NCBI GenBank assembly: GCA_021783135.1
Contig: JAJXUE010000006.1
Location: forward strand, 10,416-74,415
DNA: 64,000 nt
Source of the DNA: Bacillota bacterium
GTDB lineage: Bacteria > Bacillota > Desulfitobacteriia > Desulfitobacteriales > JAJXUE01
Direction: 5' to 3'
Position 1 is the stretch's first letter. Every line of letters starts with the position of its first letter. Of the stretch, positions 2,655 through 12,059 are shown in pieces. A program made the translations under genes and the position numbers. Below the pieces are notes generated by a model, which ran no database searches, was not told where the DNA came from, and saw nothing but the letters and a program-made list of their open reading frames with translations.

Positions 2655-3068
2655 TTACAAGTTACTCAGGGATAACTGTCCAAAGATGACTAAATCTTGC
2701 AGATTATTATCGATCACCCCTTGAACGATGGCTAAGTCCACCTTTTGGTAATTATGAACTGCAATATTGCGAAAACCTACCATACCTTTTAAGCGCCGAG
2801 CTAAGTCCTCACTTATTACCTGACCGGCAGTTAATAAATCAAAGGCGTCACGACTGTTTTGCGGAATACCAAGGCCCTTAATGGCAACGAAGTGCATAGC
2901 TAAGTCGATGCTTGCCTCACAAGCTCTTTGGATATTCAAAATAATTGAGTCCTGCCGGGTAAGGTTTTTGAGATTTGCCGGGTCTCCGGCGTACTCTTGC
3001 TGTATCCTTTGTAAACATCGTTCGATAATGGCAACTTTGTTGTAGACAATGTCATCGACCATATACAC
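2655..3068 (-). CDS. hepT: HepT-like HEPN (DUF86) RNase toxin of a type VII toxin-antitoxin pair
   Basis: 137-aa ORF with the Rx4H HEPN motif in the context FRNIAVHNY. It overlaps the upstream nucleotidyltransferase gene by 17 nt. Confidence 0.85.
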   Translation of the reverse strand: MYMVDDIVYNKVAIIERCLQRIQQEYAGDPANLKNLTRQDSIILNIQRACEASIDLAMHFVAIKGLGIPQNSRDAFDLLTAGQVISEDLARRLKGMVGFRNIAVHNYQKVDLAIVQGVIDNNLQDLVIFGQLSLSNL

Positions 3069-3462
3069 TCCCCCTTGCCGCGATTAGGCGCATAATTTCC
3101 GCTCTTTCCTCATTAAGTAAAGCATATTCTTTGAAAGCGCGTACGCGAAAATTTTGCAATAGCTCAGTACTGTCAGAATAGACTACCTCTCCTTTGCCAA
3201 GGATTTGAGCTTTTAATACGGTAGATGCTTGCTTTAAATCAACGAGATCTATCTCACGACCACACAGCGCGGCTAGGGCTTGGGCCGTTGCAAACACTTG
3301 ATACTCTGTGGCTTTGATGTCGCTCAAAAAAGCTAAATCGATGTCACTGTCTGCCCGAAAAACTCCTTGAGCACCTGAACCAAAGAGGATAATTAAATGA
3401 GCATTAATCTCCTTAATCAGGTGCTGTCTAATTATGTCAATAGTTTTTGCGTTAAGATTCAC
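3052..3462 (-). CDS. mntA: MntA-like minimal nucleotidyltransferase antitoxin
   Basis: 136-aa ORF with a GSGAQG...SDIDLAF (GSx10DxD) nucleotidyltransferase motif. GTG start preceded by GAGAGGAGA. Translationally coupled to hepT. Confidence 0.85.
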   Translation of the reverse strand: MNLNAKTIDIIRQHLIKEINAHLIILFGSGAQGVFRADSDIDLAFLSDIKATEYQVFATAQALAALCGREIDLVDLKQASTVLKAQILGKGEVVYSDSTELLQNFRVRAFKEYALLNEERAEIMRLIAARGSVYGR

Positions 3463-3527: not shown

Positions 3528-3699
3528 TAAATATGAGTTGCAGGGTTCACTATCACCCTTGCCGAAAGTTTAACCAAGACTTTACAATTACTTTAAGCAA
3601 AATTTACATTTCATCCTTATAATTATTATGGCTATAGACAATGATCAGTTTGGACAAACCGTCTTACGGTTAAGTGTAGGTATACGAAGGAGGAGCTCA

Positions 3700-3966
3700 A
3701 TGCATTTTTGGCCGGATTTCACCCGCTTGCGGAGTGAAATGGAAAACCTTGTCGAACGTGATCGACATCATTTAGGTAATGATGCGAAGTTTGCTAAGGT
3801 AAAAAGGGAAATTGAGGACAGTCTGAATAGATTGTTTGGTGAAAATTCCCGGGAGTATAGAGTTGTCAAACTAACTGCTTCCCCAGCTACAGTTGTTAAG
3901 GTACTAAACCATATTGCAGGTAGGAAGTACGGTGTTGCTCCGAATAGCACCGCAGCAAATATGTAA
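3700..3966 (+). CDS. hypothetical protein (88 aa)
   Basis: I prefer the ATG at 3700 over the tabulated 3628 start because GAAGGAGGAG lies 5 nt upstream. No recognisable motif. Confidence 0.45.
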   Translation: MHFWPDFTRLRSEMENLVERDRHHLGNDAKFAKVKREIEDSLNRLFGENSREYRVVKLTASPATVVKVLNHIAGRKYGVAPNSTAANM

Positions 3967-3997
3967 TTTTTAGGATGGTTTCTATATTTATGCTAGA

Positions 3998-4057
3998 ACA
4001 AAGGGACAGGTACATTGTTTAGTTTTTACTAGCTAAACATCATATCTGTCCCTTTGT
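3998..4057. terminator. bidirectional terminator hairpin
   Basis: ACAAAGGGACAG...CTGTCCCTTTGT, 12-bp perfect arms with an inner TTTAG/CTAAA stem, between convergent genes. Confidence 0.6.
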
Positions 4058-4122
4058 TTGTCGTACTTAGTTTTAATTGTCACTTGGCAATTTACTAGAT
4101 TGTTGCTACTTGGTGTGGTAAA

Positions 4123-5472: not shown

Positions 5473-6234
5473 TTAAACTGAAAAGGAAGCCGTGACTTTA
5501 GCGTAAGCTTCGCTAAACTTGGCCTCTGCAATTGTTTTATGCCGCAGGTAAGTGGCGAAGTATTCCCAGGAGGCTGCTTCGTCGAGCAACCCATCGGGTG
5601 TAAGGATGGAACTGAAGGTTTTGTTTTTAGAGTGCTGGGAGCCAAACAAGCGTAACGATACGATCTTGTAGGAGCGGGTGTCAGGGTAGAGATTGAACTT
5701 TATTTTGTGGTAATCATAGCCACTCTCTGACAATGTGAGCATCGTTTGGGCTGCAATGCGCAGCATAAACTGGTACAAACGATTATTATTGACTGAACTC
5801 GACAATCTGCACCAGACATGATACCCTCTGCCACTGGCGACGATTAATGGCTCACAGCCCAGTTCACTGAGCTGCTGCCTGATGGCGCGAACAGCAAAGC
5901 TCATTTCGGGAATTACGACAGTGTTGTCCGTCTTATAGTTGTTGTCCAGATTAAAACAAAACAGATTGTTAGCATAAGTGTCAAAGTACAGGCACACATT
6001 GCATTCTTGGGCGATATGCGCTGCCAATAGTTCGTCCATACGGTACGGCGGGATAGCGATAATTTTGTATTTGTGGAGTACGCCGGAGGCAGTTAACTCG
6101 CCGTACTCCAGGCTGGCCCCGCCCGCCAGTAATTTTGTCAAATAAGCAAAACCATACCTGTCGGTTTCTATCTTAGCTTGGTTTTTGGGCAATCCGCTGT
6201 AGAATTCTTGCAGTAAGCTTAGCTTTCCAGCCAT
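5473..6234 (-). CDS. PriS/archaeo-eukaryotic primase (AEP)-like protein with a variant motif I
   Basis: 253 aa. ASGRGYHVW matches AEP motif II (SGxRGxHxW). D185...LRLFGSQHSK matches motif III. FNLDNNY sits where PriS has FDIDxxDY. Its ATG overlaps the upstream gene by 16 nt. Confidence 0.55.
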   Translation of the reverse strand: MAGKLSLLQEFYSGLPKNQAKIETDRYGFAYLTKLLAGGASLEYGELTASGVLHKYKIIAIPPYRMDELLAAHIAQECNVCLYFDTYANNLFCFNLDNNYKTDNTVVIPEMSFAVRAIRQQLSELGCEPLIVASGRGYHVWCRLSSSVNNNRLYQFMLRIAAQTMLTLSESGYDYHKIKFNLYPDTRSYKIVSLRLFGSQHSKNKTFSSILTPDGLLDEAASWEYFATYLRHKTIAEAKFSEAYAKVTASFSV

Positions 6235-6794
6235 TGTTTTACCTCATCAAATCTGCTAAATCCCTTGGCACTAACGGCTGGCAGGAATTGGTGTTTCGCC
6301 ATGATTGGGTAGTATACATTTACACCATAGTGTCCACCGCAAACTATATTAAACACTGCGTCGTCCACAAGGTGCTCAATCCCCCACAGTTTACAGAACA
6401 CTATTTTGTTTTTAGCCATAAACAAGTAATCAAAAGGAATGTCGTTATCCCTGAGCCAGTTAATAGTACTTGCTTGGGAACGGCGCAGATCGCGGTGGGT
6501 GCAAATAATAATTTGCCACCCACTTTTGTTTAACCATTGCATAAATTCGACCCCATCGGTGCGCGCCTGGGTGAACTGATAGCACTGTCCATAAATTTGA
6601 TTTTGAAAAAAGGCATATTCCGTACTAAGTAAATCACTTTGCTCCGGTAGCCCACTGCGCAATCTATTCAGATAGCGATTAAAGGTTTCCTCTGTAAAGG
6701 CATAAGTGTCGTTATACCTAAAAACGGTGTTTTGCACAGTCGCTGTAAAATCATTTAAGGTGTCGTCTAGATCAATTGCGATAATTTTGTTTAT
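6219..6794 (-). CDS. HAD-superfamily hydrolase, 5'(3')-deoxyribonucleotidase (NT5C)-like; non-canonical start inferred
   Basis: The tabulated ORF starts at a GTG at 6737. The in-frame upstream sequence encodes NKIIAIDLDDTLNDF, the HAD DxDxT catalytic motif. There is no ATG/GTG/TTG between the in-frame TAA (6831-6833) and the motif. AAAGGAG at 6804-6810 is followed by ATA at 6794. Confidence 0.6.
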   Translation of the reverse strand: MNKIIAIDLDDTLNDFTATVQNTVFRYNDTYAFTEETFNRYLNRLRSGLPEQSDLLSTEYAFFQNQIYGQCYQFTQARTDGVEFMQWLNKSGWQIIICTHRDLRRSQASTINWLRDNDIPFDYLFMAKNKIVFCKLWGIEHLVDDAVFNIVCGGHYGVNVYYPIMAKHQFLPAVSAKGFSRFDEVKQWLES

Positions 6795-6869
6795 CTGTCT
6801 CCACTCCTTTAGCTGATAGTGTCTTTTAGATTAGTTTAACAAATTTTTCGCAAGTATGTCCTTCGGTTT

Positions 6870-8531
6870 CTATTCTGCGAGCCGGCCAAGGCTTGCTCGT
6901 ACCAGCAGGCGCATGCAAACCCAGTAATTGCGTTCCGAACGGGAGGGTGCGTTATTTATTCTAGAGCGGCACTCTTGCTCGGAGAACCACCAATCACAAC
7001 CTAGTTTGCCGCGCTCAAGGTTTCTGGTTATCTCAGCAATTATTTGTGAACTCCAGTTTTTACGTTGCGTATAAGCTAGGACGCGGTCAGCCAAGGCTTG
7101 GTAAGTGGGATGAAGAAAGGTATGAGTATCCTGATCATAGGCCAAGTCAAGCAGGGGAACTACCCCTGACATGTCACGCGAAATATCAGCTAACAAGTCC
7201 TGTTCCTCATTGGAGGAAGCGATATATAGGTAATAAAGCTTAGCCGTATGTTTTTCACCTGAATTGCGTAGGATGCGACCCAGCCTCTGGATGCGTTGTC
7301 GGTTACTGCTACTGGAGGAAGCTATAATACCGATATCGGTTGCAGGCACATTGAGGCCTTCATCTAGGGCGCGGCAGCTTACCAGAATGCGAATTTGCGC
7401 AGTCTGATATTGGCGCAGGACTTCTTTTCTTGTCCACTCGTCCATGCCGGAGTGATAACGTCCTACTTGTCCAGGAAATAGGAGCTGTAACTCTGCATAG
7501 ATCATATTAGCCGTGACAATTCTTTCGCTAAAAACCAAAACTTTTGAACTCAGCGGTAGCTGGGTGAGTAGATCTTTGACACAGCTTATCCGCGCTTCCG
7601 CCCGGTAGACCAGATCTTTGCGTTTGGTGGACAGGATGAGTACAGAACGAGCTAGGGAAGCAATTGTGTCATCCTCTGAATCTTGGGCTAAGTTCTCCAA
7701 AGTGGCAAAAAAACGTTGTTTACTTAACCCATTGAGAAATGAACAGCGACGTAGAAGGTATTCTAGGACGTGGGTCAGTTGTTCGCTAAGGTCCCAATAT
7801 TGCTCCGCTTCAACTGGGGTAAATTGTAGTTTAAGATTAAAGATGGCAAAAGTACTAATGATTTTGGCGTTCAAGGCTTCGCTGAAACCATATTTAAAAA
7901 TCTCAGTTCCCAGTGCAGGCACCAGTTTTTCGTTAGAGGCAGCAGTTTCCGGTGTGGCAGATAACCCAAGGGCATAGTAATTGGCGGTGTTACGAGTTAA
8001 GTAGGACATAAAATTAAAGATGCGCGAATTTTCGGGGCTGCTATAGCGATGGCATTCGTCAGCAATCAGCAGGACAGGGCTACCTTGCTGAAAGTCGTGT
8101 AGTAGATGCTGCGGTAAAGTGTAGCGGGCCGAATTTACGACATAAATCATATATTTGCGGGTTGGGAGGTCTTTGTGTGTTCCACAATAAATTCCAATGT
8201 CAGATTTGGCAACAGTGAGATCCTGCTGGATGCTTTGTAACCACTGATTGGCTAAAAAAACTTTGGGTACGATGATTTTGATTTTTAAGGCGGGTGTCTG
8301 CTCAGCCCGTAATTCATATTCCAACCTGGCAATGGCGCCTAGGGCTAGGATGGTTTTGCCTGCTCCGGTAACTACATTGACAATGCCTTTTTTCTGGTTG
8401 TGAAACCAGATATTCAAACATTCCTTCTGCCAAGGGAAGAGCTGTTTGTTTAGTAGGGCATATGCGTTAGAATTGGCTTTGTCGGCACCGGCCGGAATGT
8501 GCTTGTACATAAAAGTCATACCTTTTCTCAC
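6870..8531 (-). CDS. superfamily 2 DECH-box helicase (type III restriction Res / XPB-like core) with a roughly 110-aa C-terminal extension
   Basis: 553 aa. Motif I VTGAGKT, motif II LIADECHRY, motif III LSATPE, motif VI QRIQRLGRILR. The start is ambiguous (GTG 8531, ATG 8519 or ATG 8510). Confidence 0.85.
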   Translation of the reverse strand: MRKGMTFMYKHIPAGADKANSNAYALLNKQLFPWQKECLNIWFHNQKKGIVNVVTGAGKTILALGAIARLEYELRAEQTPALKIKIIVPKVFLANQWLQSIQQDLTVAKSDIGIYCGTHKDLPTRKYMIYVVNSARYTLPQHLLHDFQQGSPVLLIADECHRYSSPENSRIFNFMSYLTRNTANYYALGLSATPETAASNEKLVPALGTEIFKYGFSEALNAKIISTFAIFNLKLQFTPVEAEQYWDLSEQLTHVLEYLLRRCSFLNGLSKQRFFATLENLAQDSEDDTIASLARSVLILSTKRKDLVYRAEARISCVKDLLTQLPLSSKVLVFSERIVTANMIYAELQLLFPGQVGRYHSGMDEWTRKEVLRQYQTAQIRILVSCRALDEGLNVPATDIGIIASSSSSNRQRIQRLGRILRNSGEKHTAKLYYLYIASSNEEQDLLADISRDMSGVVPLLDLAYDQDTHTFLHPTYQALADRVLAYTQRKNWSSQIIAEITRNLERGKLGCDWWFSEQECRSRINNAPSRSERNYWVCMRLLVRASLGRLAE

Positions 8532-8692
8532 AGAGACTCAGCGATGGTTACTGTGTATATGCTTAGTATGACATTGTTGGATAATTGAGGCAAGTGTGGT
8601 AGGAAATAACCATCTTCGCGTCGAATGTTTGCGAAATAGAATTGGTTTGTGCTTGGGCAAAGCGAATAAATAGAGAATAAAGGAGCAACACG

Positions 8693-9481
8693 ATGCCAAA
8701 TTATGAAGATTTGTATAAGAACATGGCGGTTGGCGAAAAGGAACTTAAGGATAAGCTTAACAATCAGCAAAAGCTGTTTAAGAGCTTGAGCAAAAGTCTG
8801 GCCAAGGGTGACCTTAAGGGCTGGAATAAAGATTTAGTTGCAATGCGAGATCACATGAAAGAACAAGAAATCTTGCTGGAGGGAATGCAGAAGCAGGTTG
8901 ACGAATTTGGAATTCGTGCGTATGTAGAAAATGGCGACTTTGTGGAACAAATGCTGGACTATTGTGCTCGGCTGGAGGTGGATGTAAAAGGAGAGTATCC
9001 CATGTATGAGATGTTTCCTTTTCGGGTCAGGATTGACAGCGAAAATCTAGATTTATATCTTGATCGTAAGCGTGTCCAGTGCTTGCGTCCATTGGCCTTG
9101 GTGCAAGATGTGAAGGCTGCTCAGGATAAATTATTAAAGGCTGCTTTTGATCCAGGTGGCTTTATTAAAGAACTGGCGGTAGCTTATGATTTGACACTGT
9201 TAAAACAACAACACCAGACCCAAACAGCGGTTACAAAAGTAGGGGATATTTATTTAAAGAGTTTATACACTCTCTTAACCCCTATGCGCCGCTTTCGCAA
9301 GGAGTATGACCTACAGAGTTTCGCGTTCGATTTGGCTCGACTTTATGCTTCAGAGCTGCGTGCCACAGAGGATGGGCGACAGTTTCAGTTTGGTCCCAGT
9401 CGCAATATTAACAAAGCCATCCGTATCCTTGATAAGGATGGTAAGGAACAGTATCTGGCTACAATTAGGTTTTTTGAATAG
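8693..9481 (+). CDS. hypothetical protein, first gene of the divergent ATPase operon
   Basis: 262 aa. AAAGGAG RBS 7 nt before the ATG. The N-terminal ~70 aa are coiled-coil-like and K/E/Q rich. I recognise no catalytic motif. Confidence 0.7.
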   Translation: MPNYEDLYKNMAVGEKELKDKLNNQQKLFKSLSKSLAKGDLKGWNKDLVAMRDHMKEQEILLEGMQKQVDEFGIRAYVENGDFVEQMLDYCARLEVDVKGEYPMYEMFPFRVRIDSENLDLYLDRKRVQCLRPLALVQDVKAAQDKLLKAAFDPGGFIKELAVAYDLTLLKQQHQTQTAVTKVGDIYLKSLYTLLTPMRRFRKEYDLQSFAFDLARLYASELRATEDGRQFQFGPSRNINKAIRILDKDGKEQYLATIRFFE

Positions 9482-9492
9482 GGGGGATTACA

Positions 9493-10713
9493 TTGGAAAA
9501 CGCTGCTTTAGCCGTTGCCCGCTTGCGAGAGGGACTGCCTCCGGGTAATCGCGAGATCCTACAAGAAATATCAGTCGGCTGTGATTTTTTGCTGGATTTC
9601 TGGCGTGATAAATATTTTGAGAGCTATTTGGATAAGGGTGGTAGCAAAATAAAGTTCTTGACAGGTCGTATGGGAAGTGGAAAAACTCACTTTCTCGAGA
9701 TGTTAGCGTTGGAAACGGAAAAAATGGGCTATATCCCTATTACTCTTTCAGCACGGGACTTTTGGATTCATGATTTCAAGGAAATCTATACTGCAATATT
9801 GCGTCAGGTCAAGCTTTTGGAGCGGTTGCAGTTATGTAGCCGCGAGATAGTTCGGCAGTTGGGTTATGAGCCTGAGGATATGCCTGAGGACATAAGTTTT
9901 GCCGATTATTTGTCCAGCCAAGGAAGGCTTGATCCATTAACCAAACGGGAAATAAGGGAGCAGTTGGAAAAACAATTTCTTGCTAATCCCTTGCTAGACA
10001 ATAATTTTGCCTTGGCCTGTGCTATGTTGACTGGAGGTATCCTAGGGCACCCAACATTAGAAGATGCCAGTCGCACGCTATTGCTTCAGTGGTTGGAAGG
10101 GAGCCGGGAAACTAAAATGTCCTCATTGCGTCGGTTGGGCTTGTCGCCGAGCAAAATCACGAAATACAATGCCAGGCATATGCTGCGTTCCTTGGTGGAG
10201 GTTTGTCATCTGGCAGGCTACAAGGGTCTGGTCATCGCCATTGATAATCTGGAAATTCTAGCCGGTGCTGAAAGCGAGGAAGCACTACGTTATACGCGTT
10301 TGAAACGTGAAGATGCGTATGAAAGTATCCGTGAGTTGATTGATGAAATTGATACCCTAAAGCACACTATGTTTATTTTTTCCTTTGATCGCAGTCTGAT
10401 GGATGATGATTCCAAAGGTCTAAAATCTTATCAAGCCTTGTGGATGCGCATTCAGAATGAAATTGAAGGTTCCCGTTTTAATCGTTTCGCTGACATTGTG
10501 GATATTGATCGGCTGATTGATGAAATCTATACACCGGAAAATATTGTGCAAATATCCACTCGTCTAGCCCAAGTCATTAATCGCCTTGCTCAAGGTGCTA
10601 CTCCTATTAATCTCAGCACAGCGGAAGAGCTGTATGCCAAGTCTAGGTTTGGCAAGATGTCTTTACTCAGGCGGGTAGTGCTTTCTACCTTACAGGAAGG
10701 AGCGGAACAATAA
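9493..10713 (+). CDS. P-loop NTPase, DUF2791/BrxD-like (paralogue 1; Walker B is DN rather than DE)
   Basis: 406 aa. N-terminal ARLREGLPP, then Walker A GRMGSGKTH, then Walker B-like GLVIAIDNLE. TTG start 11 nt after the upstream stop. Confidence 0.7.
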   Translation: MENAALAVARLREGLPPGNREILQEISVGCDFLLDFWRDKYFESYLDKGGSKIKFLTGRMGSGKTHFLEMLALETEKMGYIPITLSARDFWIHDFKEIYTAILRQVKLLERLQLCSREIVRQLGYEPEDMPEDISFADYLSSQGRLDPLTKREIREQLEKQFLANPLLDNNFALACAMLTGGILGHPTLEDASRTLLLQWLEGSRETKMSSLRRLGLSPSKITKYNARHMLRSLVEVCHLAGYKGLVIAIDNLEILAGAESEEALRYTRLKREDAYESIRELIDEIDTLKHTMFIFSFDRSLMDDDSKGLKSYQALWMRIQNEIEGSRFNRFADIVDIDRLIDEIYTPENIVQISTRLAQVINRLAQGATPINLSTAEELYAKSRFGKMSLLRRVVLSTLQEGAEQ

Positions 10714-11942
10714 TGGATTTTGCAGCTCAGAGGGTTGTGGAGGCATTGCGTTCTGGAGTGTCTTCCCGAGCAGTGGGACATTACTTTTCATCAGCTCGTC
10801 CAGAATTAATGAAGCAGATTTCCCATAAGCTTGATGTGGTGCGCGAGACTGGGGTATCTGGTGGGATGGTGATTTCGGGCAAATATGGCGAGGGTAAGAC
10901 CCACCTTTTGAATACAGTGTTTAATATGGCCCACAGCAACAATATGGTCGTCAGTTTGATCTCGCTGAGTAAAGAAACCCCGTTCGACAAATTGTTTCTT
11001 GTTTATCAGAAACTGGTCAGCAATACTTATCTGCCACAACGTCTGCAACCTGGATTTCAACATATGTTGCAAGATATCACCCCTAATAATCCTATCGCTC
11101 AGGACTTGTTATCTTTTACAGGTAAGCACTTGGAGACGGACAAACTTTTCTTTGTGTTACGTTCCTTTCTTAATGTCGATGATCCTGATGATAAATATTT
11201 GCTGATGGCAGATTTAGAGGGCGACTTCATCAATACTGCCTTGCTGCGCCAGATCTATAAGAGGATTTTTGCGCAACCAGTACGCTATGCAGTACCCTTC
11301 AGCAAAACGCGTCACAGTATGGACTATTTTAGCATGTTGAGTCATCTGTTTAAACAGATGGGTTTCAATGGTTGGGTCATCCTCTTTGATGAGACGGAAT
11401 TGGTTGGTCGTCTTGGCAAAAAGGCCCGACTTAACGCTTACAATAATATGGCAGCATTTTTGTTTCCGGAGCGGTATTCGCGCTTGGAGTCTACTTTTAC
11501 GATGTTTGCTATGGGAGCATCCTATCAGGAGGATGTAATAGAGTCCAAGCATGAGTTTGAGAACGTCACCACGACGTATGTGGATCGTGCCCAGCGTGAA
11601 CCTGTTGAAAAGGTGCTGCAGCAAATTGTTGGCGCGCCTCAGTTGCAACCACTAAATCAAACTGAAATTTTGACAGTGCTGGAACAGGTACAGATTTTTC
11701 ACGGCCAAGCCTATGACTGGCAGCCAAATCTGGATGTACGTGAAGTGTTAAAAGCCTCGGAAAATCGGGGGTATTTGTTGAGAACTAAAATCCGAGCTGC
11801 CGTAGAATTGCTGGATCAGCTTTACCAGTACGGACAGGCTGGAGACATTCGGATCAATGAACTGGGAGAACCACAGTATCAAGATGAGGAACTGCCTTCG
11901 CTGGATGAATGTATGGGCGAGGAAGATTTAGATTTAGCATAA
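10713..11942 (+). CDS. P-loop NTPase, DUF2791/BrxD-like (paralogue 2; canonical Walker B)
   Basis: 409 aa. N-terminal VEALRSGVSS, Walker A GKYGEGKTH, Walker B GWVILFDETE. Its ATG shares one nucleotide with the upstream TAA (TAATG). Confidence 0.7.
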   Translation: MDFAAQRVVEALRSGVSSRAVGHYFSSARPELMKQISHKLDVVRETGVSGGMVISGKYGEGKTHLLNTVFNMAHSNNMVVSLISLSKETPFDKLFLVYQKLVSNTYLPQRLQPGFQHMLQDITPNNPIAQDLLSFTGKHLETDKLFFVLRSFLNVDDPDDKYLLMADLEGDFINTALLRQIYKRIFAQPVRYAVPFSKTRHSMDYFSMLSHLFKQMGFNGWVILFDETELVGRLGKKARLNAYNNMAAFLFPERYSRLESTFTMFAMGASYQEDVIESKHEFENVTTTYVDRAQREPVEKVLQQIVGAPQLQPLNQTEILTVLEQVQIFHGQAYDWQPNLDVREVLKASENRGYLLRTKIRAAVELLDQLYQYGQAGDIRINELGEPQYQDEELPSLDECMGEEDLDLA

Positions 11943-12018: not shown

Positions 12019-12059
12019 AAGGGCTGTCCAAACTGATAATGAGTTTGGACAGCCCTTTT
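12019..12059 (+). terminator. rho-independent terminator of the ATPase operon
   Basis: AAGGGCTGTCCAAAC-tgataatga-GTTTGGACAGCCCTT followed by TTTT. Confidence 0.7.

Follow-up and report, generated by a model that had tools for sequence, protein, structure and literature searches.

Six adjacent genes, A to F, were analyzed in a 64,000-nucleotide stretch of contig JAJXUE010000006.1 (positions 10,416 to 74,415 of the forward strand; assembly GCA_021783135.1, a Bacillota bacterium of the Desulfitobacteriales). This whole stretch is referred to as the window, and positions are given within it. The genes resolve into two units, a conserved four-gene module (C-D-E-F) and a separate two-gene operon (B-A), which lie side by side. 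The module encodes a superfamily 2 (SF2) helicase (C), a protein without known family or fold (D) and two ATPases of the DUF2791/BrxD type (E and F), and by analogy it is best read as a candidate system for defence or DNA surveillance, of the Shango/BrxD kind and so far undescribed. For the locus as a whole, a probability of about 0.6 was assigned to the reading in which C-D-E-F is an undescribed candidate immune module resembling Shango and type 2 BREX, and B-A is unrelated to it and autonomous.

A four-gene module and a separate two-gene operon

The sample of D loci comprised 80 loci from one-genome-per-species contigs, drawn from 187 stretches encoding a D relative, and seven loci obtained by exact-protein look-ups; all 87 were searched with the six proteins of the window. 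C, D, E and F were all present in every locus with enough sequence (70/70), and the ten incomplete loci were cut by contig ends. The partnership of ATPases and helicase that had been proposed from the sequence alone was found wherever there was room for it. A and B were found in none of the 87 D loci, even where D was 80% identical. Homologs of A (>310) occur across phyla, in Desulfosporosinus, Negativicutes, Opitutaceae and Lacunisphaera. B lay 5' of A in 62 of the 64 A loci with room for it, with the same 16-nt overlap in 61, and C, D, E and F were found in none of 83 A-homolog loci.

An initial interpretation of this DNA, made without database searches (the sequence-only reading), had taken the six genes as one unit and had itself made that unit depend on their co-occurrence in other genomes. 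Since the genes fail to co-occur, the six-gene model is unsupported, and as a conserved unit it is refuted. That a nucleotidase and a primase-polymerase seem to have been added to the ATPase-helicase core is due to chance adjacency in this genome. Gene packing, however tight, does not prove a system, and B-A, a mobile cassette in its own right, merits a study of its own.

C (6870-8531, minus strand, 553 amino acids [aa]), counted as the fourth gene of the module, is divergent from D (8693-9481, plus strand, 262 aa), E (9493-10713, plus strand, 406 aa) and F (10713-11942, plus strand, 409 aa). In almost all related loci C lies immediately upstream of D and diverges from it; in a few (L006, L007, L033 and L055) it is downstream. 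The 161-bp intergenic region between C and D (8532-8692) presumably holds both promoters; a simple scan gave no strong sigma-70 match within it. A ribosome-binding site (AAAGGAG) lies about 8 nt 5' of the ATG of D. D and E are separated by 11 nt, and E and F overlap by 1 nt (TAATG). The positions of all six open reading frames (ORFs) and these spacings, together with the 16-nt overlap of B and A, agree with the earlier ones. The D-E-F operon is closed by a terminator-like hairpin (12019-12057, plus strand) whose 19-nt arms show 95% complementarity; the sequence after it is TTTTGTGTG. A strong terminator had been claimed at 12019-12059; the hairpin is real, and a consensus terminator scan omitted it, probably owing to the short tail of four T only. 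The guanine-cytosine content of the cluster is slightly below that of its flanks.

Proteins encoded by the module

E and F are both members of PF10923 (BrxC_BrxD, DUF2791), with scores of 110.3 bits (1.4e-31) and 86.6 bits (2.1e-24), respectively, well above the gathering threshold of 22.2. NCBI names each of them 'DUF2791 family P-loop domain-containing protein', and the earlier assignment of the two NTPases to the DUF2791/BrxD ATPases is upheld. Their scores with the BrxD equivalog NF033438 (E, 74.2 bits; F, 44.9 bits) lie below its cut-off of 350. BrxD and SngB are the best matches of both proteins in the defence libraries. With the PADLOC models, E matched BrxD at 3.3e-21 and SngB at 1.5e-17, and F matched SngB at 8.6e-12; in these comparisons, made without a curated cut-off, both proteins match SngB about as well as BrxD. 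Both are classed as DUF2791/BrxD-like AAA+ proteins, E being of the ORC/Cdc6 type.

The similarity of E to F is remote (BLASTP E=0.02; hhalign probability 60%, E=8e-5), and on sequence the two are regarded as old paralogs. The Walker A motif of F (GKYGEGKTH) and its Walker B residues D226-E227 were invariant in 75 sequences. The Walker A motif of E (GxxGSGK[TS]) is mostly retained, with some K-to-R and G-to-Q changes; in its Walker B motif D251 is followed by D or N, and the catalytic Glu is missing. F is accordingly predicted to be the catalytically intact subunit, and E is probably an ATP-binding, hydrolysis-poor or regulatory one.

Four distant D loci (L091, L092, L094 and L095) were also inspected, and a BrxC_BrxD-type gene was present 3' of D in all four. 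Both ATPase paralogs were found in L092, L094 and L095, the contig of L091 being too short for the second; by hidden Markov model comparison the first paralog was assigned to E and the second to F. The distant E orthologs (L092 8815-9822, L094 8789-9802, L095 8836-9885 and L091 1004-1960) have no P-loop at all, and the distant F orthologs retain GxGK[S/T] and DE. This pattern of motifs points to an obligate AAA+ pair in which one member is active and the other regulatory. L092 has a helicase of the SNF2 type and L095 an 824-aa UvrD-like superfamily 1 protein, and the contig of L094 stops before any helicase would be visible. D-E-F stays constant while the helicase is displaced non-orthologously, which argues that the triad can couple to helicases in general. 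The flanks of the D-E-F-UvrD-like locus of L095 (1-4857 and 13962-14620) encode EACC1, an nSTAND1-WD40 protein of 1525 aa and a toxin-antitoxin pair of the PIN/FitA type.

For C, both RecA-like domains scored above threshold (ResIII, 7.5e-20, 71.9 bits; Helicase_C, 1.3e-14, 54.8 bits), a match to ERCC3_RAD25_C was obtained (8.7e-9), and motifs I (TGAGKT), II (DECH) and VI (QRxGRxxR) are kept in 73 orthologs, as expected of the DECH-box SF2 helicase that it had been taken for. The top PADLOC match was PbeA (3e-57), the alignment covering the helicase part only (model positions ~252-648). The match to TIGR04095 (dnd_restrict_1; 4e-41) scored 141 against a cut-off of 600. Motif I of C lies near residue 55, which leaves no space for an N-terminal HKD domain. 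The PADLOC BrxHI/BrxHII model matched at 3e-6, and SngC was not among the best 25 of 40 PADLOC matches. C is best described as an SF2 helicase/translocase of an XPB/PbeA-like clade, without a nuclease domain. Residues 445-553 form a C-terminal extension of ~110 aa that matches no family and carries conserved aromatic residues (W, Y); it could be an interface with D-E-F.

D is the signature protein of the module. It had been described as a 262-aa protein without recognizable motif, and it gave no family match in Pfam, PADLOC, NCBIfam or PHROGs. Homologs at E<=1e-3 numbered 741, from Peptococcaceae, Desulfitobacteriaceae, Syntrophomonas and Lachnospiraceae, and an exhaustive profile search returned representatives of 554 clusters at 50% identity; standalone proteins of 255-280 aa make up nearly all of them. 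D can serve as a clean marker of this unannotated system, which is frequent in gut Lachnospiraceae as well as in sulfate-reducing or syntrophic Clostridia. Structural models were obtained for the full length (predicted local distance difference test score [pLDDT] 84) and for residues 76-262 (pLDDT 91.9; predicted template modelling score 0.80). The model of D opens with a long hairpin of helices at the N-terminus (residues 4-72), the tip of which carries a conserved GDLK. A beta-meander of five strands and two long helices come next, and the C-terminal unit, with many conserved arginines, combines three helices and three strands. A Foldseek search of PDB and BFVD with both models gave nothing significant, and a profile search of PDB sequences for relatives of D gave coiled-coil noise only.

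Several identities were considered for D and set aside. A PD-(D/E)xK nuclease was rejected: the suggestive pattern D115, E117, D124-R-K126 of the Clostridial alignment is not kept in distant members, and weak Foldseek matches to MutH are insignificant (probability 0.09). Judged by its sequence conservation, D is probably non-catalytic. As a TerB homolog it was rejected for want of any Pfam or PADLOC match at E<=0.1, and a positional analogy remains. The top 150 of the 554 representatives gave no informative domain fusion: the one long match inspected (P0310) carries rhamnosidase domains and has the appearance of a chimera or a gene-call artefact, and the other extended matches have no added Pfam domain.

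Relation to known systems and candidate function

Neither D nor the combination of D with two DUF2791 ATPases and a helicase is described in Pfam 2025, PADLOC 2.0.0, NCBIfam 2026, PHROGs or the literature searched, and the earlier statement that the locus shows a combination not known from any named system is supported to that extent. One close parallel is Shango, which joins a TerB-like protein to an ATPase and a helicase and gives 10- to 100-fold protection against phage without a nuclease (PMC10250203). Both systems have a small non-enzymatic first gene followed by a DUF2791 ATPase, a coupled helicase, and no nuclease or modification enzyme. Unlike in Shango, however, D matches no TerB or SngA model of Pfam or PADLOC, and no TerB gene is adjacent. 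The module has two anciently diverged ATPases, one degenerate and one active, where Shango has one, and its helicase is XPB/PbeA-like and divergently encoded, or of the SNF2 or UvrD type in other branches. The TerB fold is all-helical, and the predicted fold of D differs from it.

In type 2 BREX, BrxD is a standalone AAA+ protein of the ORC/Cdc6 type that forms a tight dyad with the helicase BrxHI; its proposed role is to load or activate this partner (PMC12839542). The module resembles this dyad in the close linkage of a PF10923 ORC/Cdc6-type ATPase to an SF2 helicase. It differs in that PglW, PglX, PglY and PglZ are not near it in the window, in that E and F score below the BrxD cut-off, and in that C is not a Lhr/Ski2-like BrxHI (3e-6, versus 3e-57 for PbeA). 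PglX, PglZ, BrxC/PglY and PglW were also not among the 25 commonest Pfam and PADLOC families in the neighbourhood of 70 related loci. The absence from the locus itself of TerB, PglX, PglZ and any recognizable nuclease, reported earlier, was confirmed.

The order small protein, degenerate AAA+, active AAA+ recalls BrxA-BrxB-BrxC of type 1 BREX by analogy only; there, BrxA is a small binding protein, BrxB an inactive STAND/ORC-Cdc6 protein and BrxC an active ORC/Cdc6 ATPase (PMC12839542). The parallel extends to the distant E orthologs, whose P-loop is completely gone. A sequence relation to either BrxA or BrxB was not detected, the winged helix-turn-helix and coiled-coil tail of BrxC (PMC12839542) are missing from F, and the partner of the module is a helicase rather than a methyltransferase and PglZ. 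PbeA and dnd_restrict_1 are the closest matches of C in the defence libraries. In PbeA, which is found alongside a CxC ABC ATPase and DndE, an HKD endonuclease is joined to an SF2 helicase in a single fusion protein (PMC10853773), whereas C has no HKD nuclease and neither a CxC ABC ATPase nor DndE is encoded in the locus. By these comparisons the module would fall outside Shango, type 2 BREX and Pbe, from each of which it departs in a defining feature.

In the mechanism proposed here, E and F would form a hetero-oligomeric ORC/Cdc6-like AAA+ switch in which F hydrolyses ATP and E acts as a degenerate regulator. D would serve as an adaptor, sensor or scaffold that directs the complex to a cue, either a nucleic acid or a protein, and may contact its target through the Arg-rich C-terminal domain and the coiled-coil hairpin. 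The activated complex would load or license C, the SF2 translocase, on DNA that is foreign or aberrant, and C might then strip or stall replication, or pass the DNA to host nucleases. By analogy with Shango and BrxD, D as the first gene of the operon would parallel SngA, and the helicase would be the output. A wider proposal is that D-E-F with an interchangeable helicase constitutes a widespread unnamed immune family, in which an obligate active/degenerate pair of ORC/Cdc6-like AAA+ proteins, guided by D with its new fold, licenses a helicase on invading DNA, as a nuclease-free helicase-loader defence that Shango and BrxD-BrxHI would share; this is offered tentatively, at somewhat less than even odds. 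In the literature searched, no mechanism has been demonstrated for Shango or for BrxD-BrxHI. A third branch, larger than these (554 D clusters), would give comparative leverage on the mechanism of BrxD-type ATPases, through its division into catalytic and degenerate ATPases and through helicase partners swapped between superfamilies.

The genomic context of the module was examined in the same loci. Flanking ORFs from 70 loci (344) fell into 289 clusters, the largest of which was common to six loci. A minority of the 221 proteins encoded one or two genes away match defence proteins (PDC-S01, DpdF, JetA, PsyrT, AbiLi, HEC-02 and PDC-S27); the matches to mad3 and mad8 are probably ABC-ATPase cross-matches, and one distant locus adjoins a PemK toxin. 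The association of the module with defence is moderate. The defence-island argument of the sequence-only reading is weak at this locus, where one toxin-antitoxin pair lies 2 kb away, and elsewhere the neighbours are mostly housekeeping genes.

Several observations weigh against an immune function. Most of the 221 neighbours are housekeeping proteins or regulators (AraC, ABC transporters, glycosidases), and the defence association rests on aggregate PADLOC and Pfam counts over these neighbours, uncorrected for genomic background. One lineage of mouse-gut Lachnospiraceae carries the module at a constant site, with the ECF/rplM-rpsI genes on one side and a MATCAP+TPR pair on the other. D was absent from the plasmid and phage collections searched. 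The module has no recognizable effector, be it a nuclease, a toxin or a membrane protein. For D, Foldseek identified no DNA-binding fold, and an adaptor role is suggested by its shape and conserved arginines.

The strongest alternative is that C-D-E-F serves non-immune DNA maintenance, with the loader pair and adaptor recruiting a helicase for repair, replication restart or the handling of replication-transcription conflicts. The lack of an effector or toxin domain, the high conservation within Clostridia (D 50-80% identical), the many loci among housekeeping genes and the absence from the plasmids and phages searched would all suit such a role. It is nevertheless considered unlikely, at roughly one chance in five, on account of the sporadic distribution of the module (187 tblastn-confirmed D stretches in 185,579 species genomes, scanned with patterns tuned to the Clostridial branch), flanks that vary even between close relatives, and the non-orthologous swapping of helicases that is typical of conflict systems. 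In addition, the PF10923 model is named after BrxC/BrxD of BREX, and the only validated phenotype found for PF10923-type systems is anti-phage (Shango, BREX; PMC10250203, PMC12839542).

Defence systems often acquire add-on genes, and B-A could be an accessory recruited locally by C-D-E-F in this lineage. B-A lies on the strand of C after a short gap, and in another locus (L088) it is divergent beside a 1388-aa UvrD-helicase/PD-(D/E)xK protein, a hint of helicase affinity. Two helicase adjacencies make no pattern, and L089 and L090 have no helicase; over the 83 A loci C-like helicases alone were excluded, and a third gene beside B-A is never conserved. Local recruitment is accordingly judged improbable. 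Slightly less probable still is that C-D-E-F replicates or maintains an integrated mobile element. A helicase together with initiator-like AAA+ proteins would fit such an element, as would IS66, IS21 or integrases near some loci, but the 25 commonest neighbour families include none for integrase, relaxase, capsid or conjugation functions, no tRNA or direct repeats bound the module in the window, and D is missing from the plasmid and phage collections. That all six genes make up one new defence system is the least probable reading, and very improbable: the packing is tight, B-A comes 75 bp after C, on its strand, and, no terminator-like site having been reported between them, may be co-transcribed with C here, but the two units do not co-occur, even in relatives with an 80% identical D, and B-A stands alone, with varying flanks, in Verrucomicrobiota (Opitutaceae, Lacunisphaera), Negativicutes and peat metagenomes.

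The undescribed candidate immune module thus remains the preferred reading of C-D-E-F, and some individual loci that carry it are recorded here. On a Blautia producta-type contig (L001 8999-16500), the region 3' of the module gives weak matches to JetD_C and DUF6063 and encodes a 1476-residue product, an arrangement that is Wadjet-like; IS66 and IS21 elements lie upstream of the module in the same locus. In the mouse-gut Lachnospiraceae loci L096-L100 (12300-16694), genes for a MATCAP-family peptidase and a TPR protein of 986 aa invariably come after the module and may be a further conflict pair. Two contigs (L074, L075) assigned to Bacteroides metagenome-assembled genomes contain a Lachnospiraceae-type module with D 51-53% identical to that of the window, which reflects either mis-binning or cross-phylum transfer.

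The B-A cassette and neighbouring features

B (6219-6794, minus strand) and A (5473-6234, minus strand, 253 aa) are the first and second genes of an autonomous, uncharacterized two-gene cassette. It occurs in Bacillota, Negativicutes and Verrucomicrobiota and on many contigs from peat or bog metagenomes (L088-L090, L101-L180). Its flanking ORFs (175) fell into 138 clusters, with neighbours unrelated between loci, and one database protein (P0208) is a B-A fusion.

The length of B depends on its start. The ORF program and the NCBI annotation (MDA8441623.1) start it at GTG 6737, giving a product of 172 aa without DLDDT (HAD motif I). The in-frame sequence upstream, ...QINKIIAIDLDDT, contains no ATG, GTG or TTG after the preceding stop, and a ribosome-binding site (AAAGGAG) is located 9 nt 5' of ATA 6794, a start that would give 191 aa. 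The context ATA-AAC-AAA-ATT, again without a canonical start, is found in the B homolog of Candidatus Desulfosporosinus infrequens (L088 7436-7460), and more distant homologs have an ATG start just before IAIDLDDT. Because the ATA context is conserved in the Desulfosporosinus homolog, the longer reading is probably right, and translation of B probably starts at the non-canonical ATA 6794. The 75-bp gap between C and B and the DLDDT motif, both given earlier, are correct only with this start.

B, described earlier as HAD/NT5C-like, is a putative HAD-superfamily phosphatase. All four HAD motifs (DLDDT, IICT, NK and VDD) are present and are common to the homologs examined, but the family scores are below cut-off (NT5C, 8.6e-4, 19.7 versus 24.8 bits; Hydrolase, 0.0096, 16.8 versus 26.4). 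B also matched phrog_415, 'polynucleotide kinase', at 3.3e-9. A had been called PriS/AEP-like. Its Pfam scores are likewise below cut-off (AEP-TOTE, 0.0019, 18.2 versus 27 bits; LigD Prim-Pol, 0.0085, 16.1 versus 27.4), it matched the N-terminal region of PADLOC RT_UG10 at 2.7e-5, and a profile search of PDB with it was empty. D97-N98-N99, S134-G-R-G-x-H139 and H201 were invariant in 19 sequences, and D185 nearly so. Motif II (SGxGxH) is thus present, but motif I reads D-N-N where AEPs have DxD, and the AEP assignment is tentative.

On these motifs and matches, B-A is plausibly a pair for the healing and extension of nucleic-acid 3' ends. A resembles the LigD polymerase (AEP) domain in its SGxGxH motif and in the weak LigD Prim-Pol and AEP-TOTE matches, and B resembles the HAD 3'-phosphatase of T4-type polynucleotide kinase and NT5C in its HAD motifs and in the phrog_415 and NT5C matches. 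The cassette differs from LigD and T4-type end repair in that the scores are sub-cut-off and no ligase, Ku or kinase is linked.

The neighbours of the cluster in the window are ABC-F, HepT/MntA, an aldo-keto reductase and OppA. The housekeeping flanks noted earlier (ABC-F, opp) are in place, but HepT/MntA, said to lie directly beside the cluster, is ~2 kb off with two genes intervening. The HepT-like RNase (1.1e-26) and the MntA-type nucleotidyltransferase (9e-19) are encoded at 2655-3462 (minus strand) with a 17-nt overlap and form a standard toxin-antitoxin pair. An ORF of 112 aa without Pfam match is located at 3628-3966 (plus strand). Between this ORF and the aldo-keto reductase gene there is an inverted repeat (3997-4058; 26 nt, 85% complementary, 10-nt loop) that resembles a bidirectional terminator.

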